DNA of 61,846 nt from a virus, in IMG/VR virus record IMGVR_UViG_3300033566_000071, positions 1 to 61,846 of that record; one strand, 5' to 3'. A model generated the notes under the pieces. It ran no database searches. It was not told the origin of the DNA and worked only from the letters and a program-made list of their open reading frames with translations. How positions within the stretch are numbered: the first letter of the stretch is position 1; every line of letters begins with the position of its first letter. Both the position numbers and the translations under genes were made by a program. Positions 5,491-61,846 of this stretch are shown one piece after another.

Positions 5491-5509
5491 ATGCCCCCCA
5501 ATAGGTCCT

Positions 5510-5539
5510 GTTATATCAGATGATTATGCAACAAGTCAA
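5510..5539 (-). promoter_or_regulatory. Sigma70-like promoter candidate, TTGACT-N18-TATAAC
   Basis: Minus-strand reading of the 53-nt gap upstream of the 860-aa gene: TTGACT (5539..5534), an 18-nt spacer, then TATAAC (5515..5510). A G-rich RBS and the ATG at 5490 follow. Confidence 0.4.
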
Positions 5540-5543
5540 TCGG

Positions 5544-5849
5544 CTATTTTCGTCTGTACAGTGGATAAAGACCCAACTGCAGGGCCTTCACAACACTCTC
5601 GTCGAGGTCATTTTTCAGCGCCGCATCAAGTCCTGAGAAATGAAGGACAGCATGTGTTATTTCATGGAAGAGAATTTCCTCTGCATACTCATCCGTCAGC
5701 ACACTGTCAATCTTTATTTCACATTTCCCAGTTCGCTCATCAATATCGAAAAGGCCATGGCTGTCAGGCAATACGTCTCTTGAGACAGGAATGGTGATGC
5801 CCATAACTACCACTTCCGTGGGTAGCTTGCGGGGCGATTTGGCGGCCAT
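5544..5849 (-). CDS. Small HExxH (zinc-metallopeptidase-like) protein
   Basis: 101-aa ORF with the motif EEILFHEITHAVLHFSG. TAATG overlap with the 1851-aa gene. Confidence 0.5.
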   Translation of the reverse strand: MAAKSPRKLPTEVVVMGITIPVSRDVLPDSHGLFDIDERTGKCEIKIDSVLTDEYAEEILFHEITHAVLHFSGLDAALKNDLDESVVKALQLGLYPLYRRK

Positions 5850-8800: not shown

Positions 8801-11404
8801 AATTCTAGAAGAAAGTCCTCTGGATGGCGCCTCAATTGGAAGCCAGCGCCCATCAACATAGACAGACGACGCAGATCCACTGTCCCACCACTCAAAGCTT
8901 TCGTCCAATTCCAAACATCGCCCAAGAGCTGTAGCCGAATAGGTTCCGTCAGCTGCCGAGGTGGCAAATGTGAGCTGCTGTGGATCGGGCGAGGTGAGGA
9001 TGAGATATTCGCCTGACAGGGTATTTGTGAGGTCGCCATAAATAAGGATGTAGCCATCCACATTGAACGAATGTGGGGCTGGAAACGTAACCGTAGCCAC
9101 TCCATTTGAAACACTAATACTAACGTTTGTGTTGTCAGCCACATTTATGTTTTTAATCAAGGGCTTATTTAAGACGAAGGGATTGGCCAAACTATCACCG
9201 CACACGAAATTCTCGACAGTGGTGGTGGCGCCATTATCCCTAATTTGCATTATGCGTGAAGTGCGTGTCCCATAAACCAGAAGACCTGAAGAGAATGTTG
9301 TCAGGGTAGTTGTATTGACAAGAATGCTAGAAGCATCTTCCAATGCCACCATTTCCCATGTATCTGAGGCGCCTGTGTAGGTGATGGTGTCACCAGCTAT
9401 AAACTGCACATTCGCATTGAATCCAATCACATCAGTGAATATGCCGCCTCTTGCTTGAATGGCCAATTCATTGATGGTTGTATCTACAGCGCTACTATTA
9501 CTAATCCTAATTGTTGCCATTGTGGTGTCTTCTAGCTCGACACTCAAAATGGTGAAAGTGCCAGTGTTGCGCGGATCCCCTGTTCCTGTTATGACAATGG
9601 TGTCATTTGTTCCAATGTCTGTGCCGATGGTGCCGGTTTTGTTTGTGAATGTAATTCCAATATCAACCACACCTGTCGACACATATGTCACGCTTGTTAC
9701 GAGGGCATATCCGTCCACAATGCTAGCGTCATAAACAGATCCGCGTGTGCGGGCGGTGTATGCAGTGGAGAAAAGAGGGCCAATGATGTATTGAGCGTCA
9801 GTCCGTGCGCGAAGGTTGGCATATTGAGCTGGTAGGAGAAACGCGGCAGCAGCGTCAGCATTCGCTGTTCCAGCATAAAAGGCTCCGCCTACGCCGGCCA
9901 CAAGAGTTTCGGTGAGAGAGCTTTTGTAATTATCGAGCTCCGTCACCCAGCCGCCCCTGGGAGTGCCGGTTTTATAGATGTTCTCATGACCTATTCCCCA
10001 AACAGAGAGGGAAGGGTTTGTGAAATCCAGGGTGGCTGAGCCTGTGTCAGTTAGAGCCAAAATGTTAGAGACAGTGGTGGCTTCCTCATAATAAACCTCG
10101 ACAGTTTCTGAGGTGCCGGCCAGAAGGTATTCGATGTATGTTGTGTCCGACGCAGCCACGTAATAGATGCGCTGCGGCGTCACTGCGGTAAAAATACCAG
10201 CTGTATATGCATAGATATAATAGAAGCAATAGGGCGATGGAGGTCCAGCTATGCCAATTGTATTGAGCCCTGTAACGGCAGACTGACTATATGTGTTTCC
10301 AAGCGGCACTGTCGTCAAAATAGCAAAGCCGTCTATTGGGGCCACGACAGTGAATTCAACCTCGCCCGCCAAAGTGATGGTTAGGGATTCAGGCACCACT
10401 TCTACAACATTGCCCGTCAGCTCATCAAAAACTCTAACACCAATTTGAAAATTGTTAAGGTTGTGCGTGGCAGCTGGAATGGTGAATGTTTGAGTCTGCA
10501 TGCGCACGGTGATGGTGCCAGTTCCTGCTGAGACATAAGCAATAGCAACGCCTCCTGGTGTCTCTGCAATCTTACTCCTGGTAGCTGATGCCTCGACAAT
10601 GTAATATGTGGCTCCTGCTGTGAGGTTTCCTGGCATTGTGCCCGTCGACTCAATTACAACAGCATCGTTGTCGACAAAAGGAAATGTGGCATTGTTAAGT
10701 CCAATTACGCCCATTGCGTCATAATTGTCAACTGTCACCACTGCATTTGTGGAAGTGATGGTGGGAATATACACCTCTCCTGCTGAAGCCGTTTTCTCTT
10801 TGTAAAGGAAAAACGCATCCTCAGAGGCAGCCGTTACGTATGTTACTGAAATTGCGAAGGTGATGGGATCAACTGTTATGTCCTGCACTTCGAGCGTCGT
10901 GTTTGACGCATCTGTGGGCGAATCTGATTTATTGAGTCCGAGGAACACATACTTACTAGTTATGCCGGTGTCCGCTGCTGTGCGTGAAACGGTGCCTCCA
11001 GGGGCCGAAAGGGTTTCGCGGCTCTCTAGGGTGTAGGAAGAAAAATAAACGCCTGTGGACGTTCCTGAGAAGGATGAGGTGCCATAATCTGTGGACGCCT
11101 GCGGGAGGCGCCCGTAGACAATCAGCGGTCCTTGGCCGGTTTGGGCGAGGTCGATTGTGGTGCTGGTGTCAAAATAGAGCTTGATTGAGGTGCCGGATTG
11201 GACAAAGCGCCTGACGCGCAATGGTAGCCAACCATAATAGTTTTCATATCCTGGGCGAGTAGACCACTTCCCTGACGCGTCACAGGTCATGTTGATGGCG
11301 TCTTCCACAAACCCCTCGCCTATTTTGGCGCGAGAGCTATAGCTATCAATTCCGCCCGCTGGGCGCTTTGCTGTGACGTTCTGCCATGTCATGTTTCCAG
11401 CCAT
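5849..11404 (-). CDS. Giant (1851 aa) tail nozzle / tail tubular protein B-like structural protein
   Basis: Uninterrupted ORF with S/T/G/V-rich beta-type composition. It sits between the adaptor-like gene and the internal-protein genes, as in T7 order 11-12-13..16. From memory only, the N-terminal GGIDSYSS..EGF and C-terminal GSWTRFTN segments resemble gp12-type proteins. No alignment was done. Confidence 0.45.
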   Translation of the reverse strand: MAGNMTWQNVTAKRPAGGIDSYSSRAKIGEGFVEDAINMTCDASGKWSTRPGYENYYGWLPLRVRRFVQSGTSIKLYFDTSTTIDLAQTGQGPLIVYGRLPQASTDYGTSSFSGTSTGVYFSSYTLESRETLSAPGGTVSRTAADTGITSKYVFLGLNKSDSPTDASNTTLEVQDITVDPITFAISVTYVTAASEDAFFLYKEKTASAGEVYIPTITSTNAVVTVDNYDAMGVIGLNNATFPFVDNDAVVIESTGTMPGNLTAGATYYIVEASATRSKIAETPGGVAIAYVSAGTGTITVRMQTQTFTIPAATHNLNNFQIGVRVFDELTGNVVEVVPESLTITLAGEVEFTVVAPIDGFAILTTVPLGNTYSQSAVTGLNTIGIAGPPSPYCFYYIYAYTAGIFTAVTPQRIYYVAASDTTYIEYLLAGTSETVEVYYEEATTVSNILALTDTGSATLDFTNPSLSVWGIGHENIYKTGTPRGGWVTELDNYKSSLTETLVAGVGGAFYAGTANADAAAAFLLPAQYANLRARTDAQYIIGPLFSTAYTARTRGSVYDASIVDGYALVTSVTYVSTGVVDIGITFTNKTGTIGTDIGTNDTIVITGTGDPRNTGTFTILSVELEDTTMATIRISNSSAVDTTINELAIQARGGIFTDVIGFNANVQFIAGDTITYTGASDTWEMVALEDASSILVNTTTLTTFSSGLLVYGTRTSRIMQIRDNGATTTVENFVCGDSLANPFVLNKPLIKNINVADNTNVSISVSNGVATVTFPAPHSFNVDGYILIYGDLTNTLSGEYLILTSPDPQQLTFATSAADGTYSATALGRCLELDESFEWWDSGSASSVYVDGRWLPIEAPSRGLSSRIVDTAYQYFDYNTYSSQPVVASTVMADTMFFTNGDDDIVKYDGTNNYDAGLRRNIPAVFMNLDTSVASIQPGFAVAYTNTSTTGKYFQIASDAFDVGDRIYDSTHTLQVFTVVDKQLVPDTTDKWNIIVGGDTSSLANTGTLIKVKRFRYYVRFNMIDANDNVIASAAANSSDMYFDVYTAGRVMIKASDYPIVGFSDYARIEMEFYKTKSDTSAPFYLTKRIALDMTSTSPIVPIIYDDLDDDFLTQLDPVNTALLGTEIGTGWQPPYKAGFVTSADNSLIIGNLKGWPRWDITMKPTSSSVTTAAMAGFKYLFRKDSDEVATTSDFENVQSYEYVTSGTVTLPFTGTFTFTDADVTIGTGIITKAAHGLLTGAAIRLTGASLPVATSGGGLTAATTYYAIYVSASTFKLARTRADAVAGTAITYSNAGAGTNTLTSSGWQSSDLFYSPAHGLVTGNWIYLFYAALGDNQPNSYCGWFQISSADVDTFQLTGRGFSTAPAFGTVSPNRYVAATVKTDIPVWLGTDGNYGQVDGNSSASAELIAARRLADAINFTMVFSKYNTKSTYPSFRPWLTAYAGADYGIGQVVIENQVTQSGFSEIVLGTLPTGLGVFVNGLARASAEVVSSQTFLYPSRAAISFKNYPEIFDNLDADPTMSRSVVDINPADGQELTAAIPFFGTSTFGAANLNQVVVFFKANSMYVCNTATRQYQKIDSRGVGCTAPKTITPTKDGIMFVNKGGIYKLTKDMQVVFVGRYMRGKWDSLVDNTSLDIAAASHWGDRRQYSVYLPPTANPGTGDTYPTQSFIYQYDNEEVGMPGSWTRFTNVAAILGCNKDDNNFFAGVEGSVYQYRNYGSSLDFRDGTSAIPASITFRAEDFGVPGDRKSVLRCAVQIDADETALTSVNIYTATNLSTSFVLNSRISMTTVDGSQLIQCSPDDKKGTYFQMKLTHEQLSQQLVIVGQSYVVNLLNFNAVRQAHDFGGNL

Positions 11405-11446
11405 ATCGGCCCATTCCTTTGTGGAAATGTTTATATATTCATAGAA

Positions 11447-12412
11447 TTACAGGCGCTTACGATAGAAGGAACGGTTCCAGCTCTTGTTTCGAGGCTGCAC
11501 GCGCTTTCCGGTTGGGCGAGAGGCCCACATCTCTTTAACATCATCCTCGAGCTTTTTCAACTGCTCAAGTTCGTCCTCGACGTTGGTGTCAAATGTCCTT
11601 TTGATTTCAACGACAGCATGCTGGACAAGGTAGTCGGAAAAGTCGGAGAAATAGATGGGGATGCAAGACCCTTGCGCCGATGTGACGAAGTCATCATCAT
11701 TGGTTGTAGTGGGGATGGCACTACTCACCGTTCGCCCATAAACCGTCGAGCGATAAAGGGAGCTTGTCTTTATTGTCAGGCGGTTGGCCGTATAATCAAT
11801 GGCCACCACCTGGAGCGTCGCTGTAACATCGCCCGTATATTGGTTGATGATGTTTATGAAACAGCCTAAATCAGCGGTGTTTGTGGACGGCCCGCCATCT
11901 GCAACGCTGGCAATATCATCCATGTATATGTAATTATTGTCAACATCATAAGACGTGATTCGCCCCATTGATGCCACAAGCTTCGGTGGGCGAAGCTGGT
12001 AGCGAACGCGGCAGGTTATCCCACCTTGCGGCTGTGGATAGAGAGAAATGACGTTTCCCTGCAGTGTGTACTTGATTGGGATTGCAGTGACATTGTTCGT
12101 TTCATACTGTGTAACGTTGGTGGTGTTAGTGTAATCCACCCGGTAGGTGATGACGCCAAAAATGACATCAACCTGATTGACAGTGAAGGCTGCGCTGTCG
12201 GTGGGAATTGTGAAAGTTCGCCCAGTGAATGTGGACGTTGAATAATCGCGCTTGAGCATTTCAGGAAAATGGCGCCCAGCGAGACGCGTCAGCTGGAGCT
12301 GGGACCTATTGAGGCTATCCAATATCTTTGCGTCGGACAAATCGGCTGTGTTGTTTTCGTCAACACAATTTCTCACTGCCGTAATGAGTTCACTTGTCAG
12401 TGTTGTAGACAT
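11447..12412 (-). CDS. Head-to-tail adaptor / tail tubular protein A-like candidate
   Basis: 321-aa ORF directly upstream of the nozzle-like gene. The assignment rests on position only. Confidence 0.35.
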   Translation of the reverse strand: MSTTLTSELITAVRNCVDENNTADLSDAKILDSLNRSQLQLTRLAGRHFPEMLKRDYSTSTFTGRTFTIPTDSAAFTVNQVDVIFGVITYRVDYTNTTNVTQYETNNVTAIPIKYTLQGNVISLYPQPQGGITCRVRYQLRPPKLVASMGRITSYDVDNNYIYMDDIASVADGGPSTNTADLGCFINIINQYTGDVTATLQVVAIDYTANRLTIKTSSLYRSTVYGRTVSSAIPTTTNDDDFVTSAQGSCIPIYFSDFSDYLVQHAVVEIKRTFDTNVEDELEQLKKLEDDVKEMWASRPTGKRVQPRNKSWNRSFYRKRL

Positions 12413-14256: not shown

Positions 14257-14493
14257 TTACAGTTTGCCTAAGGCCTGAAGAACGGCCAGTATGCTGCCGG
14301 CTCCAGCGCAAGCGGCGGCCAAAACCTTGGCAACTTTTATAGGAAGGAGTGCGGTTTGCATGTCCTTCTCCAGTAGCTCTGTGCGCTTGATGTGGAGCTC
14401 TAGCTGGTCGTTATATGTCTTCAGCCTCTCGTTAGTTACGGCAGAATGCTGCTCCAGTCTCATGAGTGTATCGAATATGCGTTCTTCGTTCAT
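14257..14493 (-). CDS. Small coiled-coil protein with C-terminal transmembrane anchor
   Basis: 78-aa ORF with a helical N-terminus and a hydrophobic tail, VAKVLAAACAGAGSILAVLQAL. Confidence 0.5.
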   Translation of the reverse strand: MNEERIFDTLMRLEQHSAVTNERLKTYNDQLELHIKRTELLEKDMQTALLPIKVAKVLAAACAGAGSILAVLQALGKL

Positions 14494-21633: not shown

Positions 21634-23640
21634 TCAAACTTGGCCCGGTCCTGGGGCAACCCCTCCGGGAGCGACAGCACTCGCTGCGGCTGCTATATCC
21701 GGTGAGCCTGTGGCAGCTACTTGACCGGCTCCGGCTGGAATTGCTCCCACACCCGGCTGTCCCGGTGGCTGCCCAGAAGTTTGACCGGCAGCGACAGAGG
21801 CTGCCATGTCCACGCGTGCGTCGATATGGCGGTCGACCAGCTCTTGCAATTCAGGTGCGAGATAGGCAAATTGTGCACTAGACCGATATTCCTTACAAGC
21901 TTCGAGCATAGGTATGTGGTCTTCGTTTTTCTTCGGTTCAATGAATATTGCCTGACCATCCATAAACGCCGCTTCCATTTTGTCAAAGATTTCATTTTGC
22001 CTCATCTTTGCCCGACTCACCAAATCGACGGGACCCTTGCTATCACTCAAGCGCATAAAGCCCAATATTTGAGAGGCGCTATATCCAGCCTCGATGAGAA
22101 GGTCTTTGAGCTGCATCACTTCTTCTCTGCGGCTCTCAGGATCCAGCGAGAAGCTTGTACCGTAGTCGGTATCGAAGTCGTATTCTCCTTCGAGGTCGGA
22201 TCCATTATAGAAGGCAAGACTAACACCATCTTCTTTTCCAACAATATCAAGCTTCTTTGGCTCAGTGTAGCGCAGCTGTACAAGCTCGAGATAGTCTCGG
22301 AAAAAGCTTTCTGTAGCGAACTGAAATTTTACGAAGAACCGGCGGCGTGTCAGGTTGGCACTATTAATTGCTGACTGCGTAGCATACCCTGAGAGCTCTC
22401 TCTTGATTTGACCAAACATCGATTCATTGACGCCTGCCAAAGCTTCCATTCCCGCTTCGAGGCGCTGACGGAATTCGCCCATAGCTGGCATGAGCTGGGG
22501 AGGGTTGATGTAGAGGGGAGCCGGGCCTCCGCCGCCCTTAACTTGAATGATGTTGTAGGTGTCAGTGCTCACCTGCTCGCCCACTTCCATATCGTCATAG
22601 ATGACAAGGCGAACGTTTCCGTGAGCTTGTATCTGCTCAAGAGTGAAGGAATCAATTCGATTCATCACGTCCTGAAGTCGGTTGGTGTAATCGAGGAAGC
22701 TCTTTCCGTAAATCTGACCGGGCACATCGATGTCGGTGTGGATTTGATAGGGGAGCTTGGCGCCTGGGTGGGTGTTCTCTTCCATCTCGCCCATGAGGAC
22801 ATATTTGTCTTGAGAAAGCCAAAGATAGCAATGTCTTCCGATGAAGCCGTTCCATGGCTGCCCCACTTCCCAATATTCATACACCTCGAAAAGCTCTTCC
22901 TCAAACTTATCGCCTTTGTCCCTATTGGCGGCGTTCGTCAGAAAGACACCCTTTTTATCGAGGATGAATTGACGTTGATCGGGCCAACGTGCCAGGGCTT
23001 CGTCCAGCGGGAGCCTTTGGCGGTCGAATAGATATTTGACATCCTTCCAGCATGTTGCATCTGGATCGGCATAGATTTCCCAAACAAAGCGGGCCTTAGC
23101 ATCGATGTCGCCTTGCGTCTCAACAGTGCCCTCTTTGACGTTTGTCACGATCGGGCCGATTGCAGGGTTCCACCAAAGCTTCGAAAAGCCGGTGCCGTAC
23201 ATCAGTGTACCGAGTGTTCGCATGTCCTGAATATCTTGGACATTTAGTTTCTTTCGCCCATAATGGATGAAGCTGTCTGCCACAAGGGCAGCGCGTCTGT
23301 CCTTGTATTCAGCTGTCCTCGGAGTGGGAATACAACTCGGTGGGTTGGCTGAGGCCTGCGCATGCAGAAACCTTAAGTATTTGAAACTATAGCTGATGCC
23401 GAGAGAGCTGTCTGGAGCATCCATGCTTCGAGATGCAATTGCGTTATAAATATCAATTGGTTGGGAAGCACTTCCTCCACCTTCATTGGAGCGGTCCCAG
23501 TAAGCAGCAAAAGCGCCTTCTTCATTAAGGCGCCACTGATCTTCATGATATTTTTCACGCATGTCCCTAGAATAGATGAATTTTTTGTGAAGGCTTTTGA
23601 GTAGCTCTGGAATGGTGGGGGTGAGAATGCGCCACTTCAT
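21634..23640 (-). CDS. Portal protein
   Basis: 668-aa ORF downstream of terL and upstream of scaffold and capsid, with a G/P/A-rich C-terminal tail. Size and position match podovirus portals. Confidence 0.75.
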   Translation of the reverse strand: MKWRILTPTIPELLKSLHKKFIYSRDMREKYHEDQWRLNEEGAFAAYWDRSNEGGGSASQPIDIYNAIASRSMDAPDSSLGISYSFKYLRFLHAQASANPPSCIPTPRTAEYKDRRAALVADSFIHYGRKKLNVQDIQDMRTLGTLMYGTGFSKLWWNPAIGPIVTNVKEGTVETQGDIDAKARFVWEIYADPDATCWKDVKYLFDRQRLPLDEALARWPDQRQFILDKKGVFLTNAANRDKGDKFEEELFEVYEYWEVGQPWNGFIGRHCYLWLSQDKYVLMGEMEENTHPGAKLPYQIHTDIDVPGQIYGKSFLDYTNRLQDVMNRIDSFTLEQIQAHGNVRLVIYDDMEVGEQVSTDTYNIIQVKGGGGPAPLYINPPQLMPAMGEFRQRLEAGMEALAGVNESMFGQIKRELSGYATQSAINSANLTRRRFFVKFQFATESFFRDYLELVQLRYTEPKKLDIVGKEDGVSLAFYNGSDLEGEYDFDTDYGTSFSLDPESRREEVMQLKDLLIEAGYSASQILGFMRLSDSKGPVDLVSRAKMRQNEIFDKMEAAFMDGQAIFIEPKKNEDHIPMLEACKEYRSSAQFAYLAPELQELVDRHIDARVDMAASVAAGQTSGQPPGQPGVGAIPAGAGQVAATGSPDIAAAASAVAPGGVAPGPGQV

Positions 23641-23661: not shown

Positions 23662-23832
23662 TTAAAATCGAAAGATGCTTCCGTGTGTTTTCGAAGAGCG
23701 CTTTTCTGGCTCAGCCTTGTCGAGTATTCCCTTGCCGTGAAGGCGCGTGAACAGCACAAAAACGCCGGCAAGAGCCGCAACGCTAAATCCCAGTGAGAAC
23801 ATAGCTATTGTGTAGATTGGGCTTGTGTCCAT
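23662..23832 (-). CDS. Small transmembrane protein
   Basis: Start taken at the ATG overlapping the terL stop (TGATG). One TM helix, YTIAMFSLGFSVAALAGVFVLF. The ORF track's alternative start is 23868. Confidence 0.45.
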   Translation of the reverse strand: MDTSPIYTIAMFSLGFSVAALAGVFVLFTRLHGKGILDKAEPEKRSSKTHGSIFRF

Positions 23833-25367
23833 CAGAATGCTCTCCGTCCTGAATATTTGCGTCCCCAAATTTTGGATTTACGCTTCATGGCTTCTGCTAT
23901 TTTAATTGAGGCCTTACGCTCTTCTGCAAGCTGGCTTTGTTTCATCTCGTGATAGACGGATTCGTAGATGCGGGGCATCTCCTCATCCTTAGGCTTCTTC
24001 ATCCACAAATACCGCACAGTGTCCGCGCAATGGTATTTGTGCGAATTCACAATCTCTTTTTCTGTGGGCTTCCATTTAGCCTGAAGCATTTCCGTGTGAA
24101 GCGTTTCAGTTGCCTTGCCCTCTGCCATCATGAGAAGACCATTGTGCCATGCAACATTCACATTTTCAATTGATTCTAATTTCTTGGCCATTTTGTCAGT
24201 GATGGGCGAATAATCGATACCCTGCACCTGGGCCTCTTTATAAAACCCGCTGGGCGAGCTGTCACAAATGCGGCTACCCTTCGGAAGCCTGATGCCGGAT
24301 AGATGGCTCGTCTCTATCTCACGGACAAGAAGGCTAGCTGCGCTGCCGTCCATTGTGAGGGCCTTAACACACCACCAAGCCGGATGGGTAGGGCTCTTGC
24401 ACCAAAGCGTCACACCCACCTTTCCGCTCGCTGCAGGATCTACGACGACGGCGTGCTGAAGACTTGGTGCATAGGTGAAGGGAAGAGGGGCCCTGTTCTT
24501 ATAGGGATCATAGCCACGGAAGACGCGCTCGCTTGAAAAATACCAAGCGCCGTGTCGACGGGCCTGAAACTCCACCTCGTCCCCGCACTTGCTTCGAATC
24601 AAATCGTCAAGCTGCTCGACGGTCCAGCCTTCATAAATTGGATTGTCTTCGAGCCTAAGAATCCATTTTTTAAATGGAAACTGACATTCATCGACAAGCT
24701 GCTGGATTGCTGGGTTTTCTACGAGCGGTGTAAATGTTCCGTAAAAATAGCCGGATAGGGTCATCCCTGGCTCAATCTTCTTTGTGCTTGTGGCACTGAC
24801 GCGGAGAAGAAGTTCGGCCAAAAAGCTCTCGTCATCTGGCATCTCATCGAGCCACACCACATGTGCGGTGAAGCCCTGCACTTTTTCCCGTGCATTTTTG
24901 GCGTCGTGATGGGATAGGAAGAGGAGGCGGTTTCCGTTGGAAACATGCTCGACGCTTTTAATGAAGGCGCCTTCCTTCTGCGGATTGCGGAAGGAACCCG
25001 GAGGTAGAAGGGGCTTGAGCTTATTCGCCCAGAGCTCTTCTGTTATGAGCTGGCCAGTGCGGCCGGCCACGATGATGAGGAGGGGTTGGTCTGCCCACTC
25101 AGGCAGGCGCTTTTTGAATGGATGAGTTCCCAAAAACCACCACGCCACTTCTCTTGCGCCAGTTGAGGTTTTCGAAGAGCGGTTGGCCCCAATAATCCAA
25201 TGGCCCCTATGCTCGGTATCCATTATGATTTTTCTGGCATTTCCTCTTGGGCGAGAATCGAGGTCTCCTGCGACAAAGCACGACAAAAGCTTATCACTGC
25301 TCTCTGCCCTCAGTTTGGCATAGGCAAGACGCTTTTTGTCCGTGGAGTTGCCGGAGACATTACTCAT
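23832..25367 (-). CDS. terL: Terminase large subunit
   Basis: Walker A-like IIGANRSSKTSTGA, Walker B HVVWLDEMPDD, and nuclease-type acidic motifs AVVVDPAASG and CADTVRY. 511 aa. Confidence 0.9.
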   Translation of the reverse strand: MSNVSGNSTDKKRLAYAKLRAESSDKLLSCFVAGDLDSRPRGNARKIIMDTEHRGHWIIGANRSSKTSTGAREVAWWFLGTHPFKKRLPEWADQPLLIIVAGRTGQLITEELWANKLKPLLPPGSFRNPQKEGAFIKSVEHVSNGNRLLFLSHHDAKNAREKVQGFTAHVVWLDEMPDDESFLAELLLRVSATSTKKIEPGMTLSGYFYGTFTPLVENPAIQQLVDECQFPFKKWILRLEDNPIYEGWTVEQLDDLIRSKCGDEVEFQARRHGAWYFSSERVFRGYDPYKNRAPLPFTYAPSLQHAVVVDPAASGKVGVTLWCKSPTHPAWWCVKALTMDGSAASLLVREIETSHLSGIRLPKGSRICDSSPSGFYKEAQVQGIDYSPITDKMAKKLESIENVNVAWHNGLLMMAEGKATETLHTEMLQAKWKPTEKEIVNSHKYHCADTVRYLWMKKPKDEEMPRIYESVYHEMKQSQLAEERKASIKIAEAMKRKSKIWGRKYSGRRAF

Positions 25368-27152: not shown

Positions 27153-27409
27153 CAGGGGTTACAATGACAAGCATTGTGTGCTACCGCACGGCGTCGAAGG
27201 CGAAGCTACCGATAGGGAGGTTCTGCCTTCCGGTAAGAAAGCTCGGGGCCTGCGGCTGCTTTCCCTCGCTTTATGACGAACAGTAAGAATTGAGCCAAGA
27301 AACGGGATGACAGAAAGGGGTCTAGGAGCTTCTAGAAATAAAAGGATGAGTCTAGCTATTGGCCAAAATTGCGTCGATTCTAGGCCATTTGTGCAATTCG
27401 CCCATAAAG

Positions 27410-27640
27410 CTAATAATAGCAGTGACATGCAGCGCCACGCTTCTGCTCTCTTGTAATAATTCTATTGAGAATAGCACCCATCCTCACTATGAGCTCTTTC
27501 CTTCGCAAAACGAAATGCCGCATTTGCCCTACAATCGATGAAACCGCTCCGTCCTTGGCAATGCCCTTTCCGGCGAAATCGATTTTAAGGGCCTTTTCAG
27601 AGGCGTTCTTACATTCGTAGTAAGAATTAAAGTTTCTCAC
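27410..27640 (-). CDS. Possible small basic protein (regulator candidate), GTG start
   Basis: 76-aa ORF with gene-like codon choice and a possible HTH-like stretch, GIAKDGAVSSIVGQMRH. I found no RBS. Confidence 0.3.
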   Translation of the reverse strand: MRNFNSYYECKNASEKALKIDFAGKGIAKDGAVSSIVGQMRHFVLRRKELIVRMGAILNRIITREQKRGAACHCYY

Positions 27641-29697: not shown

Positions 29698-29918
29698 AGC
29701 CAGCAAAGCATCTTGTTGAGGCATCACCTAGCTGGTGGCCAACGGCGCTCATCTTTTTTCGGACAATTAAAGCCATGCTATGGCTAGTGTTGGGGTTTTA
29801 TATGACGGTGACGGGTATTCTAATTCTAGTGCTGAGCGGCTGTCAAGAAAGGCCCCCGTTCCTCGGTGGAGCAGCGAAGGTGCATATTGTGACAACAGAA
29901 AGGTGGACAGGACCATGA
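29694..29918 (+). CDS. Small membrane protein / possible tiny lipoprotein
   Basis: ATGA overlap with the upstream gene. A hydrophobic stretch ends in the lipobox-like ILVLSGC. If processed, the mature part would be only about 25 aa. Confidence 0.5.
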   Translation: MKPAKHLVEASPSWWPTALIFFRTIKAMLWLVLGFYMTVTGILILVLSGCQERPPFLGGAAKVHIVTTERWTGP

Positions 29919-30109
29919 AAAGAGAAACTCGAAATTTAGCCATTCTTTCCACAATTATGGCTGGCCTCAATTTGATTGTCAGCGGAAGTATGGCCGTTAT
30001 TGCCTCTTTCCATGGCTTTCATTGGCTTGCCTTCCTCTTCTCGATGGTGGGTGCGGTTGCTGTCGCCATATTGTGTGAAGCCCTCAACGTTCTTTATAGG
30101 AGCAAATGA
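29915..30109 (+). CDS. Small two-TM membrane protein
   Basis: ATGA overlap with the upstream gene. Sequence: MKRETRNLAILSTIMAGLNLIVSGSMAVIASF..LAFLFSMVGAVAVAILC. Confidence 0.55.
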   Translation: MKRETRNLAILSTIMAGLNLIVSGSMAVIASFHGFHWLAFLFSMVGAVAVAILCEALNVLYRSK

Positions 30110-30110
30110 A

Positions 30111-30386
30111 ATGCGTCTTTTTATTAATAGTGTATGGGCATTGACGGCTATGTTTTGGATTTTTCTGGCATTCTCAGGTTGCCGCTCGGAGCACAGCATT
30201 AAAGCGTCCGGCACGGCCACTGTTAAGCACGTAATTTCAATTGAGTTTGCTGCATGTGACACACTTCCCGATCCCGACCGCTTGGAATGCGTGAAAACAT
30301 TCCTCGAAATTCTTGAGGCAGCCATCAAGGCCCAGGAAGCCGGAAACGGGGGGCCATTGCTTCCGACATCAGGAGGAATGCAATGA
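30111..30386 (+). CDS. Lipoprotein (signal peptide plus lipobox AFSGC)
   Basis: MRLFINSVWALTAMFWIFLAFSGC, followed by a soluble domain of about 67 aa. Confidence 0.6.
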   Translation: MRLFINSVWALTAMFWIFLAFSGCRSEHSIKASGTATVKHVISIEFAACDTLPDPDRLECVKTFLEILEAAIKAQEAGNGGPLLPTSGGMQ

Positions 30387-30559
30387 CCCTCCTCTCGATG
30401 TACGTTGCCTGGGCGAGGGCTTTGGGGCGGTTCCTGGGGATTGCTTTGGCCGAACTGGCAATTACCATCCTCTTCTTTCCCTTCATCCTAATCGTTGGCG
30501 TGGGCATTAGCCTTTTGTCTCTAATTGCGAAGCTCAATAGTGGGCGAGGGGGGAAATGA
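30383..30559 (+). CDS. Small two-TM membrane protein (58 aa)
   Basis: Hand-translated: MTLLSMYVAWARALGRFLGIALAELAITILFFPFILIVGVGISLLSLIAKLNSGRGGK. ATGA overlaps at both ends. Confidence 0.45.
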   Translation: MTLLSMYVAWARALGRFLGIALAELAITILFFPFILIVGVGISLLSLIAKLNSGRGGK

Positions 30560-56363: not shown

Positions 56364-56744
56364 ATGGAAAAGAAGTTTAAAATTTTGGTGTGCGGCGGTA
56401 GAAACTATAGAGACTGGGACACACTTGTCGCCCAGCTAGACACTCTACAACCCATCTCTTGCATTGTAAACGGAGGGGCTGGAGGAGCAGACGAGATGGC
56501 CGCTGATTATGCCCATGAGCGCAGTATCATGTGCTACACTCACCATGCCAAATGGAGTGAGTATGGAAGGCGAGCCGGCCCAGTGAGAAACAGACAAATG
56601 CTCGATTTACATCCAGACCTCGATATGGTTGTGGCCTTTCCTGGCGGAAAGGGGACAGCGGATATGGTTAAGGCCGCTGACGAAAGGAAGATTTTAGTCT
56701 GGGACCTAAGGGTAGAAAACTCGCCCGCCAACACGAAGACGTGA
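56364..56744 (+). CDS. SLOG-superfamily protein (DUF2493-like)
   Basis: Motifs ILVCGGRNY, VNGGAGGADEMAADYA, GPVRNRQML and FPGGKGTADMV. The family name is from memory. Confidence 0.65.
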   Translation: MEKKFKILVCGGRNYRDWDTLVAQLDTLQPISCIVNGGAGGADEMAADYAHERSIMCYTHHAKWSEYGRRAGPVRNRQMLDLHPDLDMVVAFPGGKGTADMVKAADERKILVWDLRVENSPANTKT

Positions 56745-57053
56745 ATCAATATGGATCCATGTCTTCGTCGCAGATGGGTGTTCCATCCAAATATTGAAGC
56801 GCTCTAAATTGTCTTGAATGAATTTCAAAAGTTCTGGCGTTCTCACCAAATCAGCAGCTACACCATCAACATGGGCACTACGTTTGGCCCCGCCTATGGA
56901 TTGATTGTGGCGCTTACAGCGAGCTGCAGAGGAAAGGGAAATGGGCTGGCCATAGGCCTCTCTAATTTCATTCAAAAGCTTTTTGAATTCCGGCCTCACC
57001 GAATAACCGCACCCGCACGAGCACTCAAGCTCTTTGTCCGAAAAGTAGTTCAT
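56706..57053 (-). CDS. Endolysin, peptidase M15 (M15A/M15_3-type) family
   Basis: Motifs FSDKELECSCGCG, SSAARCKRHNQSIGGAKRSAHVDGVAADL and WIHIDSR. No signal peptide. Confidence 0.85.
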   Translation of the reverse strand: MNYFSDKELECSCGCGYSVRPEFKKLLNEIREAYGQPISLSSAARCKRHNQSIGGAKRSAHVDGVAADLVRTPELLKFIQDNLERFNIWMEHPSATKTWIHIDSRLRVGGRVFYP

Positions 57054-57062
57054 ATCCTAACC

Positions 57063-57467
57063 TTAAAAAGAAACGCTCACACCGATGGCAACAGAGGGAT
57101 GAGTGTTGATGGTAGTGACGCTAATAATTTTGAAGGGGCTTTGACCTAGGCGATAGGATCCAAAGGCCTCATATCCATTCGAGCCAACCTGTCTCAGAAT
57201 GCCAAGTTCCCAGGTATTTGGGCGAGGGATGGGTAGGGGCTTTTCCTTTACCAATTTCTCGACTATTTTCGTCTGGCCTTCCTCCACCTTCGTAATAACA
57301 GTGCCGTCTTTGGTACGCCACTCTGTCTTCACAACCGTATTGGTTTCGGTGACAACATCCCTTTTCGTAACGATTTTGTCTTTTCCCTTTGGAGCAGCCC
57401 TATAGCCAGCCCAGGCTGATAGGCCCATCAGGAGGGTAGCTATGCCCCCATAGACATAAAGCCTCAC
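57063..57467 (-). CDS. Spanin-position protein with an N-terminal TM/signal and a C-terminal OMP-type beta-signal (GTG start)
   Basis: N-terminus MRLYVYGGIATLLMGLSAWAG, then a K/E/T-rich linker with PLPIPRP, then C-terminal alternating strands ending AIGVSVSF. It lies between the holin candidate and the endolysin. Confidence 0.5.
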   Translation of the reverse strand: MRLYVYGGIATLLMGLSAWAGYRAAPKGKDKIVTKRDVVTETNTVVKTEWRTKDGTVITKVEEGQTKIVEKLVKEKPLPIPRPNTWELGILRQVGSNGYEAFGSYRLGQSPFKIISVTTINTHPSVAIGVSVSF

Positions 57468-57643
57468 TGTTGCCCCTCTTTCTTGCCCTGAAAGGCATTC
57501 GCCGCAGCCACTCCCATAGCGATGGCGGAGATTGCGGCGGCGACTTCCGCGCCTTTATGGTAGCCAAGGAAGGTGAGTGCCGTTATGGCATAGAGCCCAA
57601 TTACAGTACGGCGGCATTTGAGGATGCTAATTAAGTTCTGCAC
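57464..57643 (-). CDS. Holin candidate (59 aa, two TM, GTG start)
   Basis: Hand-translated: VQNLISILKCRRTVIGLYAITALTFLGYHKGAEVAAAISAIAMGVAAANAFQGKKEGQQ. GTGA overlap with the next gene. Confidence 0.45.
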   Translation of the reverse strand: MQNLISILKCRRTVIGLYAITALTFLGYHKGAEVAAAISAIAMGVAAANAFQGKKEGQQ

Positions 57644-57646
57644 AAC

Positions 57647-60600
57647 CTATTCGTCCTTATTTAGGTGAAGCTTATTGTAAGCTCTTTGCATTATTGTCTC
57701 TTTTCCAAAAGCCCTCTGAAACTTCTGAACTTCGTTTATGACAGGAGCCACAATAGGAGTGTAGGAGGTGGCTGCGGCTGAAATGGCATTTCTGGCAGAG
57801 CCCTTCAGGCGGTCCTTTACACTTAGGTCACTAGATGTAAGAGGCGCTAGTGTTTTTCCAATTGTGTCCACAAGGGGGTTGGAAGCGAGGCTACGCCCTT
57901 GGCTTTGCTTTGGAAGAATGGAGGCAATTGGAGCGAATTCTTCTGGCTTTCCAATGAGGTACTGGACGAGAGGGTTTTGGTGCTCCTCCATCCAGGCCGA
58001 GGCTCCAGCTAGCATGAGGTAGGCAGCAAAATATTTACGTAAAACTTGTGCCGATCCAGATTTCATTCCCTGCTCACGGTAGGTGTTGGCAACATCGGCG
58101 GCAATATTTATGGGCCATGTCGTGAACATACTGAAGGCCGGGCCCACGGCTCTTTGCATTTCTGATTGCGCAGCCTTGCCGAAGTCGAACTGGGTTTTTG
58201 ATATTAGGTAACGGCCTATAGCGTCGCCCATATTCTCAGCAGCCGATTCGCCTTTTCCCTCAAGCATCGCCCTCTTAACCACACTCTTGAGCCCTGCATC
58301 AGCCTTTTTCATAAACTTGGCCGCATCTGGATTACCAGCCAAAAGATCTTTGGCAATTTGCTGGCCCATCTTATAGCTGATTATGCGGTTGACAGTGTCG
58401 GAGGCTCCATAAAATGTCATCATCTTTTCATTCATAGCATCAGTGTAATGCTTAGCCCTGCCCACACCTGTGGCCGTGTTCTCGAGCTCTCCTTTGAAGA
58501 ATTCAGAGGCTAGGTTTTTTGAGGCCAAAAAGCTTTTGAGCTTCCCAGGATTTGCTGCAGACAATTTAATTGTATCGAGGCCTGAGGATACAGCCAGCCT
58601 ACTTCCATAAATCCCTCCCACTTCAGGTGCGGTGCTCATGAGAAACTGAGTATAGTTTCTAATCATACCGGGCACATTGAATGCCAGCTTTGCAGGATAG
58701 ATTTGATTGTTGAGCCAAGCCGCAAATTCAGGAAGCTCTGCTACGGCTTTTCCCGCAGTTCGTCCAAATATATTCATCGTTGTGTCTCGGGCCATCTTTG
58801 TGCCCTTATATTCCATCTGATTGCGTAGGTTTTTCATGGCCCCGTCCAGGCCCCATTTATTACCCATGTTGTCGGCTAGGTAGCGTTTGAAGAATTGGGA
58901 TGCCTTTGGCATGCCGCCCACCTCAAGAGCCCTCACCATTGTCTGGCCATATTTCAGAGCGTCGTCATACATAGCTGCACGAACGTTTTCGTTGACATAG
59001 CCTGACAAAAGCTCCCAGGCATTGCGCTCCTGAATTCGCCCAGCTATTTCACCCTTCCGAGCGAAGAGGGCAGATATGTCTTTATCAAGCTCCTCTGTAG
59101 ATCCAATCTGCCCTTTGCTAGAAAGGAGTGCGGTTTTGAGTTTGGCGATGTCCCCGCCTTCTTTAATTGGCTGCCCTATCCTTCTTTGGGCGAGAGAATC
59201 GAGAAGGTCAAGATGGGACGCGGAAACGCTATCTGGCTTCAGCCGAATATCATCTATAGTGCGAAGGCCCTCTTTGGCCATTGATTGCTTCAGTTCATCT
59301 GTAATATCATCCACTTCAACAGCCAACTTAACAGCATTCTTGGCCTTATGGGGCATATAATCAAGGCGCCGCTCTGGACTGTAGCCAAGCTCCTTCAGAA
59401 ATCCAAATAGCTTGTCTGTATGCTTAACCACATCCTGGCGCAGCACATCAATATTGGCCTGCCCGTGCTTTGCAATAGCTTTTGTGAGCCCTTCCGTTGG
59501 CTTTCTCTCAATCAAAGCGAAAACGTCTTCACCGGAAAGGCCAAGCTTGTCGGCGGCCCTCCTCACCTTATAGAGGTCTTGGGCGAATGTATTGGAAACA
59601 TTGGAGAAGGCATGGCGGGTTTGATTCATCTTGTCATAGAGCTGACCCACTTCAAGCCCCGTGGCCCCGTCCACCGCACGGGCGACATAGAGGGTGGGAT
59701 TAAGCCACTGGTCGGCTTTTGTAATGTCTTTAAGAGTGGGAGCACTTGAAATGCCTTTGTTAAGGGCGGCTGTATCTTCCTCTACAATACGTGTTAAAAC
59801 GCCCTGCGTTTTGAACATGGCATAGGTGTCATCCAGCTTTTCGGGTGTTAGCTTAGAGGCAGCAGAATTGAATGCATCATCAAGCTGCTTACCGTCGAGC
59901 TGAGCTTTTGCGTCAGCCAAAACATAACGCTTGAATTCACTAGGCACTTTGTCCGCTTCGCGCGGCATATGAAGGTCTTCGTCCTTGAGGGCTGCCATAG
60001 CCTTTGACATATATCCACGGCTATTGTCGGCCAAAGCTTCCCCTATATTCTCCGCAGACTCGCCCACAAGGCTCTCGGCAATTTTACCTTTCCCAGCAAC
60101 ACGGCTTGCAATGCTGGCCGCGCCGAGCGTAGCGAAGACCCCTGCCATTGCTACAGACTTTTTATCCCCGCCATGAAGGGCTTCAGTGAGGGCTTCCCCT
60201 CCAACCTGGGCTGCCCCGCGGATGATGGCAGCCGGCATAGATGAGGCTTTGATGAGCGGATTGAGCTCTGTTCCAATTGTGAGGGCCGCAGTGGCAATTC
60301 CTTTTCCAGAAATGGGATCCCACTCTTCACCAGCTTCTTGGCTCCTAAGTCTATCTCGCCCTAGGCCAGCATAAACGGCATAAAGGGCTGGACCGATTGT
60401 CGCTAGAGCTCTCACAGTACCGGCCCCTGCTCCGAGCGCTGTACCAAGTCCTGGTATAACGCTACCGGCTGCAGAGCCTGCAGTAAATCCAGCACCTAAA
60501 TTACTGACAATATATCCGGCTAATGCTGCATTACTGTGCCCGAGTGCCTTTGTGCGGTCATCGGCTGACATGGAAAAAGGTGCGATGGCCTCTTGTGCAC

Positions 60601-60844
60601 CTGCCTTCGATCCTTCTTTAAAGGCCTGGAAGGTGGAGCGCTCGTCCTCGACTTCAGGAGAAGACATTTGCCCGTTCTCATCGAAATCTGGGATTTGGAC
60701 GCCTTCAACAATAGGCGAAACGGGCGTCACTTCAGTGGTGTTAGCTTCTGGCGTCCCACTTTCATCGCCCACAATGTCAGGCACCTCAACGCCTTGGATG
60801 ATGGAGCTAATTGGTTCTTCTTCGTCGTTTGAAAAAACGCCCAT
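57647..60844 (-). CDS. Large (1065 aa) internal virion/ejection protein candidate
   Basis: Acidic repeated N-terminus followed by Gly-zipper hydrophobic segments (NLGAGFTAGSAAGSVIPGLGTALGAGAGTV, VAMAGVFATLGAASIASRVAG), then a long helical body. It is the last virion gene before the lysis genes. Confidence 0.5.
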   Translation of the reverse strand: MGVFSNDEEEPISSIIQGVEVPDIVGDESGTPEANTTEVTPVSPIVEGVQIPDFDENGQMSSPEVEDERSTFQAFKEGSKAGAQEAIAPFSMSADDRTKALGHSNAALAGYIVSNLGAGFTAGSAAGSVIPGLGTALGAGAGTVRALATIGPALYAVYAGLGRDRLRSQEAGEEWDPISGKGIATAALTIGTELNPLIKASSMPAAIIRGAAQVGGEALTEALHGGDKKSVAMAGVFATLGAASIASRVAGKGKIAESLVGESAENIGEALADNSRGYMSKAMAALKDEDLHMPREADKVPSEFKRYVLADAKAQLDGKQLDDAFNSAASKLTPEKLDDTYAMFKTQGVLTRIVEEDTAALNKGISSAPTLKDITKADQWLNPTLYVARAVDGATGLEVGQLYDKMNQTRHAFSNVSNTFAQDLYKVRRAADKLGLSGEDVFALIERKPTEGLTKAIAKHGQANIDVLRQDVVKHTDKLFGFLKELGYSPERRLDYMPHKAKNAVKLAVEVDDITDELKQSMAKEGLRTIDDIRLKPDSVSASHLDLLDSLAQRRIGQPIKEGGDIAKLKTALLSSKGQIGSTEELDKDISALFARKGEIAGRIQERNAWELLSGYVNENVRAAMYDDALKYGQTMVRALEVGGMPKASQFFKRYLADNMGNKWGLDGAMKNLRNQMEYKGTKMARDTTMNIFGRTAGKAVAELPEFAAWLNNQIYPAKLAFNVPGMIRNYTQFLMSTAPEVGGIYGSRLAVSSGLDTIKLSAANPGKLKSFLASKNLASEFFKGELENTATGVGRAKHYTDAMNEKMMTFYGASDTVNRIISYKMGQQIAKDLLAGNPDAAKFMKKADAGLKSVVKRAMLEGKGESAAENMGDAIGRYLISKTQFDFGKAAQSEMQRAVGPAFSMFTTWPINIAADVANTYREQGMKSGSAQVLRKYFAAYLMLAGASAWMEEHQNPLVQYLIGKPEEFAPIASILPKQSQGRSLASNPLVDTIGKTLAPLTSSDLSVKDRLKGSARNAISAAATSYTPIVAPVINEVQKFQRAFGKETIMQRAYNKLHLNKDE

Positions 60845-60862: not shown

Positions 60863-61846
60863 TTATTTCTTAATTGTGGTGAAGGATTGCTGCAATATTT
60901 TGGCATAATCGGAGCGAGCCTTTGCATCGGCATCCCGTATTGATTTGCCTTGCTTCATATACTCAGCTGTCTTGGCACGGATGAATGTCCCTTGATTTTC
61001 GAGCACATCTCTAACTTGAGGGAATTGCTTGAGGGCTTCAATGTTCTTTTGCTGCTTTACGCCAGCCTTAACCACATCATCATAATCAGGGCCAGAGAAC
61101 ACACCTTGCCCGGCTTCCTGGTAGATTTTCGGACTCGCAACCATTCCGTAGCCACGCGCCTGCGCAATTTGAGCATCAAGCATCTGAAGCTTACCTACGG
61201 CCTCAGCCCTAGCATCATTGCCCTTTAGCCTACTAATCGCACCTGCGGTGCTCTGCCAAGCGGCAATGTTTTTATCAAGTTCAGATTCACGCTCTTTGGC
61301 CAAGCTTTCGACAGCGTCCTTACCGCCGCCGGCAGCACGCTCAGCGCGGGCCAGCATTTCATCATTCCACTTCATAAGGCTATCTTGATAGGTGCGCTCC
61401 TGCTGCTCATAATCTGTCTTATACCTAAGGCGCTGCCCCTCGTTCTGCCACTTTCTATAGGCCATTTCATACATGGCATTACGCTCTTGCTTCGATTCGC
61501 CCAGACGCTGCCGCTCTTTATTGAGCGCATCCATATCAACGCCATAGGCTTCTTTGGCTGCAGCAAGTGTGTTCGAGAGGTCACGCTGCACTTCGTTAAG
61601 CTTTTGGCTCCAGTCGGTGGTGTTGAATTTCACGCCACTGAGGTCCTGGCCAGACTGAAGGCCAATTGCACCGGCAGCTATAAGGCCAACAGCATTGACG
61701 ATTTTTTCTGTCAATTCCTTTTTAGCCACATTATCCGTCGCCACTTTATTGATGGCCATTAGGTCATCGATTTGCTGCTTGACGGCAGAAGCTTTAGCTT
61801 CAACCTTTTGCTGATTGCGATCCATCCCAGCTGAAATGTCACTATA
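60863..61846 (-). CDS. 3' half of the junction-spanning late gene (continues from 916..1)
   Basis: The ORF-track ATG at 61825 is an internal Met. The frame stays open to the window end (61846) and is in phase with 127..916. Confidence 0.8.
   Translation of the reverse strand, partial: YSDISAGMDRNQQKVEAKASAVKQQIDDLMAINKVATDNVAKKELTEKIVNAVGLIAAGAIGLQSGQDLSGVKFNTTDWSQKLNEVQRDLSNTLAAAKEAYGVDMDALNKERQRLGESKQERNAMYEMAYRKWQNEGQRLRYKTDYEQQERTYQDSLMKWNDEMLARAERAAGGGKDAVESLAKERESELDKNIAAWQSTAGAISRLKGNDARAEAVGKLQMLDAQIAQARGYGMVASPKIYQEAGQGVFSGPDYDDVVKAGVKQQKNIEALKQFPQVRDVLENQGTFIRAKTAEYMKQGKSIRDADAKARSDYAKILQQSFTTIKK
61720..61846. repeat. Terminal direct repeat, exact copy of 1..127
   Basis: Same as above. 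Unique genome length is therefore 61,719 bp. Confidence 0.97.

Follow-up and report, generated by a model that had tools for sequence, protein, structure and literature searches.

A phage protein with a predicted N-terminal membrane helix and C-terminal outer-membrane-type beta domain as a candidate spanin analogue

The virus record IMGVR_UViG_3300033566_000071 of IMG/VR is a stretch of 61,846 nucleotides (positions 1 to 61,846; the window), and its late genes on the minus strand include a lysis cassette in which a protein of 134 amino acids (aa) without a named family is encoded between a putative holin and an endolysin. This protein and its relatives combine an N-terminal hydrophobic helix, a polar linker and four C-terminal amphipathic beta strands, and end in a pattern typical of substrates of the beta-barrel assembly machinery (BAM). 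We propose that this protein acts late in infection, at lysis, as an analogue of spanins whose anchoring is inverted and of the outer-membrane-protein (OMP) type, and we give this reading about an even chance of being correct. From the architecture and the gene neighbourhood taken together, the protein would bridge the periplasm or disrupt the outer membrane (OM) of the host.

The lysis cassette and its unnamed protein

The cassette begins 3 nt past the end (57647) of a late gene for a 1065-aa protein and carries, on the minus strand, the genes for a 59-aa protein, the 134-aa protein and the endolysin. The TGA of the first open reading frame (ORF) shares the tetranucleotide GTGA with the GTG at which the 134-aa ORF starts, and a AAGAGGGG Shine-Dalgarno sequence is present upstream of the latter. 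The TAA of the 134-aa ORF is followed by a spacer of 9 nt, with AGGA inside, before the ATG of the endolysin gene. The GTG start of the 134-aa ORF is supported because the homologues of the protein begin with MR(I/L)Y. No sigma-70-like promoter was found within the cassette on the minus strand. An earlier note made from the sequence of this DNA had described the same arrangement, including the GTGA coupling and the 9-nt gap, and all the sequence features that it listed were located where it had placed them.

The endolysin matched Peptidase_M15_3 of Pfam (PF08291, E 3.8e-16) and PHROG 894 "endolysin" (E 3e-22). It is a small single-domain enzyme without an N-terminal transmembrane domain (TMD) or a wall-binding module, and its 349 relatives in a tblastn search were nearly all found in phages of Gram-negative hosts, which included Rheinheimera, Vibrio, Escherichia, Klebsiella, Proteus, Salmonella, Ruegeria and Bacteroides. 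In addition, structural-gene families of Pseudomonas myophages are present in one of the related loci considered below (L013). The relatives of the endolysin in phages of Gram-negative hosts, its single domain with no wall-binding module and these structural families of L013 together make it likely that the host has two membranes.

The 59-aa protein belongs to the "CRRT...AAANA" family, for which no match was found in Pfam, PHROGs or NCBIfam. It shows the features by which holins are recognized, as it is small, has at least one TMD, carries a charged C-terminus (...QGKKEGQQ) and is encoded together with an endolysin, and from these sequence features it is regarded as a candidate and named here a putative holin. 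Homologues with two transmembrane (TM) segments adjoin endolysins in the related loci L001, L002 and L013; with the endolysin confirmed, the lysis cassette claimed in the earlier note was thus borne out. The holin identity is further supported because the copy in L013 stands beside an M15_4 endolysin and away from the family gene of that locus.

The 134-aa protein had no match in Pfam, PHROGs or NCBIfam, and a profile search against the sequences of the PDB gave noise only. With phmmer, run exhaustively over 1.84 billion representatives, three distant homologues were detected, and over two rounds of profile search the family grew from 4 to 27 and then to 110 clusters. The family alignment contained 124 sequences of 128-177 aa. 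The members all come from metagenomic phage contigs and bear no meaningful source name. None of these 124 sequences matched a Pfam model, those for YadA_anchor and OMPs included, and none gave a meaningful match in PHROGs, where a single member matched PHROG 739 "Rz-like spanin" weakly (E 0.005). Scans of IMG/VR with single sequences found nothing, and scans with subfamily alignments returned 7 loci. A prophage copy was not found in two scans of species-representative bacterial and archaeal genomes, a weak negative in which a single subfamily sequence served to confirm hits; this absence fits a family of virulent phages.

Helix, linker and beta domain of the family

All the members follow one plan of three parts, namely a hydrophobic helix, a polar linker and four amphipathic beta strands. 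The helix of the 134-aa protein begins after a very short N-terminus, and AlphaFold2 (AF2) run with the family alignment modelled residues 2-23 as one continuous helix with a predicted local distance difference test score (pLDDT) of 75-79. Across the family, the uncharged hydrophobic stretch has a median of 19 aa and also starts after a short N-terminus; it is followed by aromatic residues, by K/T and then by Pro26 (114 of the 124 members), with Y, F or W making up ~50% at two columns after the segment. The flank on the N-terminal side of the helix is more positive than that on the C-terminal side. The earlier note had left the choice between an inner-membrane anchor and a signal cleaved at AWA|G. 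Such a site is present in the 134-aa protein (its N-terminus runs ...LSAWAGY), and family-wide no AXA or small-X-small site is conserved. The length of the stretch, the aromatic end of the helix, the near-invariant Pro and the single continuous helix of the AF2 model together favour an uncleaved signal-anchor; the anchor thus stood, and cleavage at AWA|G became the less likely of the two as the site is not conserved in the family. The content of G, A, S and T in the helix is 45% in the 134-aa protein (family median 39%), which lends no more than moderate support, as a sequence trait, to a possible signal-anchor-release (SAR) behaviour.

The linker varies between 57 and 98 aa in the family (median 76) and measures 62 aa in the 134-aa protein. 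Across the family it is rich in V, K, T and E and contains at its centre a near-invariant KPDGT turn, in which D54 is kept in 122/124, G55 in 124/124 and T56 in 122/124 of the sequences and position 53 is Pro in 117/124; the 134-aa protein has TKDGT at this place. Its linker region ahead of strand 1 is rich in Pro (PLPIPRP) and was modelled without a helix there. The 134-aa protein contains no cysteine and therefore cannot be a lipoprotein, and a periplasmic Cys occurs in only 29 of the 124 members.

The C-terminal block of ~50 aa carries the motifs Y-S-L-G, G-x-R-L-G-x-x-P and V-G-(I/V)-R-Y-(D/E)-F across the family. In all four strands L, V and I alternate with G, S and T, and aromatic residues are placed at the strand ends; the hydrophobic columns are 88, 90, 101, 103, 112, 114, 126, 128 and 130, with G/S/T between them, and residues 86 and 99 are aromatic in 65% of the family. 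The terminal residue is Phe in 102/124 members (F134) and Trp in 4 more, giving F or W in 106/124. Gly stands at -6 in 87/124 when counted from the end and in 102/124 in the aligned column (G129), and the positions -3, -5, -7 and -9 are hydrophobic across the family, as in a porin-type beta-signal. The C-termini of porins show the same spacing, OmpF ending in ...VGIVYQF.

To examine the specificity of this ending, a strict pattern of an aromatic residue at -1, hydrophobic residues at -3/-5/-7 and Gly at -6 was applied to all ORFs of 60 aa or more in the six frames of the genome and of 17 related loci. The pattern occurred in 11 of 960 ORFs, and all 11 were family members, leaving zero background. 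The beta-signal of the kind recognized by BAM, which the earlier note had read from a single sequence, is kept across the 124 aligned sequences, and by these sequence hallmarks the 134-aa protein is of the kind expected of a BAM substrate.

The AF2 model of the 134-aa protein made without an alignment was uninformative (pLDDT 46). With the 124-sequence alignment, the C-terminal region formed a meander of strands 86-92, 99-106, 112-120 and 125-132 with pLDDT of 84-92. The linker was of low confidence except for a short hairpin (E46-51/E57-62) around the KDGT turn, and beyond residues 2-23 no helix and no coiled coil appeared, the remainder being strand or disordered. The topology of an N-terminal helix and a C-terminal beta meander, which had been deduced from the sequence in the earlier note, was thus reproduced by structure prediction. 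A Foldseek search with this model gave, as top matches in the PDB, the transmembrane domains of Hia (3emo, 2gr8, 2gr7) and AtaA (9vnj), and as top viral matches phage proteins annotated with YadA-like anchors. The probability was ~1 over ~55 residues, and the PDB matches had a root-mean-square deviation of 3.3-3.9 over ~56 aa and E-values of 0.06-0.15. The likeness to trimeric-autotransporter anchors that had been suggested before therefore agrees with the top Foldseek hits (Hia, AtaA and YadA-like), albeit at weak E-values of 0.03-0.15. As a four-strand sheet cannot close alone, the model would imply an oligomeric barrel. A monomeric barrel of eight strands was ruled out on account of the linker, whose charge is too high, and of the AF2 model, in which just four strands are membrane-like. 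The coordinates of the features are collected in Table 1.

Table 1. Features of the window discussed in the text (positions are those of the window; residues are those of the 134-aa protein).
Feature	Position	Strand	Description
59-aa two-TM holin candidate	57464..57643	-	GTG start; two hydrophobic segments, charged C-terminus
134-aa protein, unnamed family	57063..57467	-	GTG start; helix, KPDGT-type linker and four-strand OMP-like domain
N-terminal hydrophobic helix, residues 3-22	57402..57461	-	predicted inner-membrane signal-anchor
Polar linker, residues 23-85	57213..57401	-	predicted to be periplasmic; V/K/T/E-rich, net charge +5
TKDGT, residues 52-56	57300..57314	-	version of the near-invariant KPDGT turn in the 134-aa protein
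Four amphipathic beta strands and beta-signal, residues 86-134	57066..57212	-	ends ...VAIGVSVSF
115-aa Peptidase_M15_3 endolysin	56706..57053	-	ATG start; single domain
1065-aa late ORF	57647-60844	-	no Pfam or PHROG match; directly upstream of the lysis cassette
78-aa tail-anchored protein	14257..14493	-	N-terminal coiled coil, HIKRTE motif, C-terminal TMD
Portal	21634-23640	-	late gene
TerL	23832-25367	-	late gene

Gene neighbourhoods and conventional spanins

The neighbourhoods of the family gene were compared in 17 distinct loci, in 12 of which an endolysin lies within 5.2 kb of it. The order in L001 is two-TM protein, family gene and M15 endolysin, and L002 has the same order with a 90-aa acidic protein between the last two. 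Homologues of the two-TM protein stand directly upstream of the family gene in L001, L002, L003, L010 and L012 and nearby in L007, so that they accompany even the very divergent family members of L003, L010, L012 and L007. In L016 the two-TM protein is followed by a lysozyme, and a family member of 202 aa begins 4 nt past the lysozyme stop; this is the canonical order of holin, endolysin and spanin known from T1, with the family member in the spanin slot. In L003, L010 and L015 the family gene follows tail-fibre genes, with the holin candidate between them in L003 and L010.

Some further observations concern the genes of these cassettes. In the two closest relatives, L001 (7880-8023, 47 aa) and L002 (7807-8004, 65 aa), small, very basic ORFs containing Cys separate the holin candidate from the family gene; they are absent from the genome studied here, where the two genes overlap directly. 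The L016 lysozyme (5188-5772) has a Lys/Pro-rich cationic tail at its C-terminus (...PPKEEPKKSVEKVPTTSKPKTPKKKA), which recalls the tails of membrane-active endolysins. In L007, a lipoprotein-like ORF of 153 aa (11162-11623; lipobox LMGC) with a HELTH metalloprotease-type motif overlaps the lysozyme gene from upstream.

A 78-aa tail-anchored protein encoded elsewhere in the genome has homologues that lie immediately upstream of the family gene, in L007 (5531-5791) and in L012 (4506-4766), and its homologue in L013 (1738-1986, minus strand) is flanked by the holin candidate and the M15_4 endolysin. The 78-aa protein matched an XhlA-like "hemolysin" PHROG weakly (E 0.085) and may be an accessory lysis protein of the XhlA-like kind, though its membership in the system is uncertain.

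The presence of a conventional spanin was searched by a lipobox scan of the whole genome in all frames and from all starts. No lipobox ORF was found in any frame of 56.6-57.7 kb, and in the complete genome neither a pair of inner-membrane and outer-membrane spanins (i-spanin and o-spanin) nor a unimolecular spanin (u-spanin) was detected; a u-spanin is absent because no lipobox ORF has a C-terminal TMD. The earlier note had seen no o-spanin ORF in the alternative frames of the cassette and had held that a conventional pair elsewhere would speak against an unusual design. The first observation extends to the genome, since the nearest lipobox candidate is 27 kb away and an embedded or adjacent o-spanin is thereby ruled out, and the pair was not found in the scan of the complete genome. 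Likewise, the cassettes of L001, L002 and L016 contain no lipobox ORF. The maximum separation between the genes of an i-spanin and its o-spanin was given as ~1 kb (Kongari et al., PMC6139136).

An early cluster of small membrane proteins on the plus strand (29780-30559) includes one of the lipobox ORFs of the genome, a 91-aa lipoprotein candidate (30111-30386) whose lipobox is LAFSGC and whose mature part has three Cys. It is preceded by a two-TM ORF (29780-30109) and followed by a 58-aa membrane protein (30383-30559). None of the three had a PHROG match. The cluster may be a superinfection-exclusion module, and the 91-aa lipoprotein candidate is unlikely to be a distant o-spanin partner.

As for its setting, the window was found to represent a phage genome that is complete and circularly assembled, with a length of 61,719 bp. 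An exact direct repeat of 127 nt at positions 1-127 and 61720-61846 is the overlap expected from the assembler, and this terminal repeat indicates that the genome is complete and either circular or terminally redundant. The genome was distant from every cultured phage in both nucleotide and TerL comparison, and the TerL search gave a single weak match, which was uncultured. The plus strand carries replication genes, including a family A DNA polymerase and helicases. The 1065-aa protein is kept in the related contigs L001 and L002, also directly upstream of their lysis cassettes. Another late ORF, of 1851 aa (5849-11404, minus strand), has no Pfam or PHROG match. The final gene of the plus-strand arm (56364-56744) encodes a SLOG/YAcAr-domain protein (PF10686, E 5e-15; PHROG 289) and converges on the endolysin gene with 39 nt of overlap between the 3' ends.

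Possible functions and comparison with known systems

If the 134-aa protein acts as a spanin analogue, it would be co-produced with the holin candidate and the endolysin, and its N-terminal helix would remain in the inner membrane (IM) as an uncleaved signal-anchor while the polar linker of ~60 aa threads through the peptidoglycan. The C-terminal four-strand domain with its beta-signal would be passed to the BAM machinery, and copies of it could assemble into a small OM barrel, for which the simplest analogy is the 12-stranded trimer of autotransporter anchors. Upon removal of the wall by the endolysin, the tethers might cluster and the linker might fold back around the KPDGT turn, and this collapse would draw the membranes together and leave the OM ruptured or fused. 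In a variant of this mechanism, the helix would be SAR-like, and the collapse of the membrane potential by the holin could free the protein to act on the OM, possibly as an unplugged pore. More tentatively, and a little short of an even chance, we suggest that the family represents a third class of spanins, in which one small chain resides in both membranes through an alpha-helix in the IM and a self-assembling, BAM-inserted beta-barrel segment.

Several observations weigh against the spanin-analogue reading. The 62-aa linker could reach ~21 nm at maximum if fully extended, and the membranes of enterobacteria are spaced ~21-25 nm apart. Simple bridging may thus be geometrically tight, because the reach of the linker is at or below this spacing. 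The lone four-strand sheet of the model cannot close, so that the oligomeric barrel is only implied. The Foldseek E-values are weak, as noted above, and hhalign gave a probability of 2-3% against the genuine anchors of YadA (2lme) and Hia (3emo), with only the last strand aligned. The early region also contains isolated lipobox ORFs, three in number (27389-27541, 29775-29918 and 30111-30386), and these were rejected as spanins since they have no adjacent type II membrane protein with a periplasmic domain and no spanin-family match. In several loci, such as L009 and L011, the family gene lies 2-5 kb from the endolysin, among replication genes.

The loci L003 (7436-8223) and L010 (7352-8007) also count against it, as both have a spanin-like pair beside the family gene. 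One partner, just upstream of a lysozyme, is a protein of 161-165 aa that has an N-terminal TMD, and the other is a small, Pro-rich, acidic, lipoprotein-like ORF that overlaps it by 4 nt; the body of the 161-165-aa protein is aromatic and beta-rich (OMP-like), not coiled-coil. It follows that the family does not always replace a conventional spanin, and in this clade its members may act in addition to a spanin and not in its place. Lastly, cultured phages have no detectable family member among 50,697 GenBank phage records, which were searched by blastn with the cassette region and by tblastn with the 134-aa protein and six family members; the sole match, to the i-spanin region of Agrobacterium phage Milano, was at chance level (E 7).

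The sequence of the helix leaves room for a secreted small OMP, in which a Sec signal is cleaved at AWA|G and the mature protein of ~113 aa forms an oligomeric OM barrel with a periplasmic tail and no IM tether, either weakening or perforating the OM (an "outer-membrane holin") or serving some other surface role. The cleavage site of the 134-aa protein is plausible, and the beta-signal, the amphipathic strands and the autotransporter-anchor-like fold fit such a protein equally well; moreover, the geometry problem of the short linker vanishes, and a 12-stranded barrel without the pore-filling helices of autotransporters could be an open pore. Against this, no small-X-small site is kept at the end of the hydrophobic segment, where the aromatics, K/T and Pro (114/124) resemble the interface end of a membrane helix and not the c-region of a signal peptide; for an h-region, an uncharged stretch with a median of 19 aa is long, and AF2 draws a single continuous helix over residues 2-23. 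We regard a cleaved, secreted OMP as rather unlikely. The beta domain could also dock on an OM partner without being inserted, making the protein an atypical, IM-anchored i-spanin whose partner would be a host OMP, BamA engaged through the beta-signal (with possible jamming of BAM) or a phage lipoprotein such as the candidate at 30111-30386. An N-terminal TMD followed by a periplasmic domain is what i-spanins have, lipobox ORFs do occur elsewhere in the genome, the Pro-rich lipoprotein-like ORFs of L003 and L010 are a few genes off, and one family member has the weak "Rz-like spanin" match (PHROG 739, E 0.005). Yet no coiled-coil helices are predicted, homology to lambda Rz is lacking (0.5%), and the lipid-facing hydrophobic alternation with the terminal Phe is typical of membrane-inserted strands. 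There is, besides, no embedded, overlapping or adjacent lipoprotein gene, the nearest being 27 kb off in the early region as against the maximum of ~1 kb (PMC6139136), and docking of this kind is judged improbable.

An envelope protein that does not disrupt the OM was also considered, with a role in lysis timing through the two-TM partner (antiholin-like), in superinfection exclusion or in receptor masking. Its most constant neighbour is indeed the small two-TM protein and not the endolysin, the gene is placed among replication genes in some loci, and a spanin-like pair seems to be separately present in L003 and L010. However, OMP beta-signals are not known from antiholins or exclusion proteins; the gene belongs to the end of the late operon, where it is coupled to lysis genes, and occupies the spanin slot after the lysozyme in L016; and the family was found in phage contigs only, with no prophage copy in the two scans of bacterial genomes, which argues against lysogenic conversion. 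A role of this sort appears quite improbable. The spanin-analogue function is the reading that we favour.

How the OM is broken in phages without recognizable spanins is an open question, and the family offers a concrete candidate that can be tested. A spanin could not be identified in 91 of 677 (13%) genomes of phages of Gram-negative hosts, and the criteria used in that survey ignored other topologies; it was also remarked that "an OMP could act as an o-spanin" (Kongari et al., PMC6139136). The cationic peptide of phiKT provides a route of OM disruption other than spanins (10.1101/515445), and it was the only characterised one found in our literature search, which left most subscription journals uncovered. 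Within the same scope, no prior description of a spanin with a link to a beta-barrel, an autotransporter or BamA was found. The design was thus anticipated in the literature, and the family is an unannotated and widespread candidate for it, fused into a single chain. It comprises >100 clusters that are unnamed in any database, and its members are small enough for direct tests. If the proposal is true, this would be the first described small polypeptide integrated into both membranes of Gram-negative bacteria, widespread in uncultured virulent phages, and it may explain some "spanin-less" phages. It would add a new spanin class to the annotation of phage genomes and would mean that phages can wire two membranes together via the host BAM machinery; it could also serve as a minimal model of proteins that span both membranes and possibly as a new lytic module for engineered phages or antibacterials.

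When compared with known systems, the 134-aa protein does not show the set of features by which i-spanins, u-spanins or autotransporters are defined. Homology to lambda Rz, T1 gp11 and autotransporter anchors was ruled out by hhalign at probabilities of <=3%. The protein resembles Rz of the lambda Rz/Rz1 pair in its predicted type II membrane anchor at the N-terminus and periplasmic domain, and in being encoded with a holin candidate and an endolysin. It differs from the pair in that coiled-coil helices and periplasmic Cys are missing and that no gene for a lipoprotein partner is embedded in its gene, overlaps it or adjoins it, and hhalign of the family profile with lambda Rz gave a probability of 0.5%. 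Envelope-spanning host proteins such as VirB10, TonB and TamB have their IM anchor at the N-terminus, and their C-terminal part extends to or into the OM, VirB10 entering by helices and TonB and TamB merely docking onto OMPs. To our knowledge, no small single chain combining a helical IM anchor with a self-assembling beta-barrel segment has been described.

The likeness to the anchors of YadA, Hia and AtaA lies in a C-terminal four-strand amphipathic meander of ~50 aa, in which the residues facing the lumen are small and the last residue is aromatic; this resemblance, as judged from the predicted model, is structural and without detectable sequence homology. The 134-aa protein differs from autotransporters in having no pore-traversing helix, stalk or passenger domain, and its N-terminus is apparently an uncleaved anchor, so that the chain would stay periplasmic instead of being exported. 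The "disruptin" gp28 of phiKT and the membrane-active tails of endolysins also disrupt the OM without spanins in spanin-less phages, but these are soluble cationic amphipathic peptides and not membrane-anchored proteins with a beta-signal (10.1101/515445; PMC6139136).

The u-spanins are built with an OM lipoprotein signal at the N-terminus and a TM helix at the C-terminus (PMC6139136), and the statement of the earlier note that they are oppositely designed agrees with that survey and with the sequence of T1 gp11 in GenBank. T1 gp11 has the lipobox LSGC at its N-terminus, a lipid anchor in the OM and a C-terminal TMD, whereas the 134-aa protein has none of these and is inverted; its predicted anchors are a TMD at the N-terminus and a four-strand beta-signal domain at the C-terminus. 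The two show no homology, as hhalign of T1 gp11 with the family profile gave a probability of 0.7%. They are, nevertheless, similar in size (133 aa for T1 gp11), and each is a single small protein of a lysis cassette; the u-spanin feature of being encoded with a holin candidate and an endolysin is found in this genome and in L001, L002 and L016. Both would have one end in the IM and the other in the OM, joined by a non-helical, beta-prone and Cys-poor periplasmic segment, and a periplasmic Cys was seen in 0 of 58 u-spanins (PMC6139136). T1 gp11 is also a precedent for a chain with one end sorted to the OM and the other staying in the IM (PMC6139136), and the action proposed for the 134-aa protein, that of a tether which collapses after removal of the wall, is shared with it.

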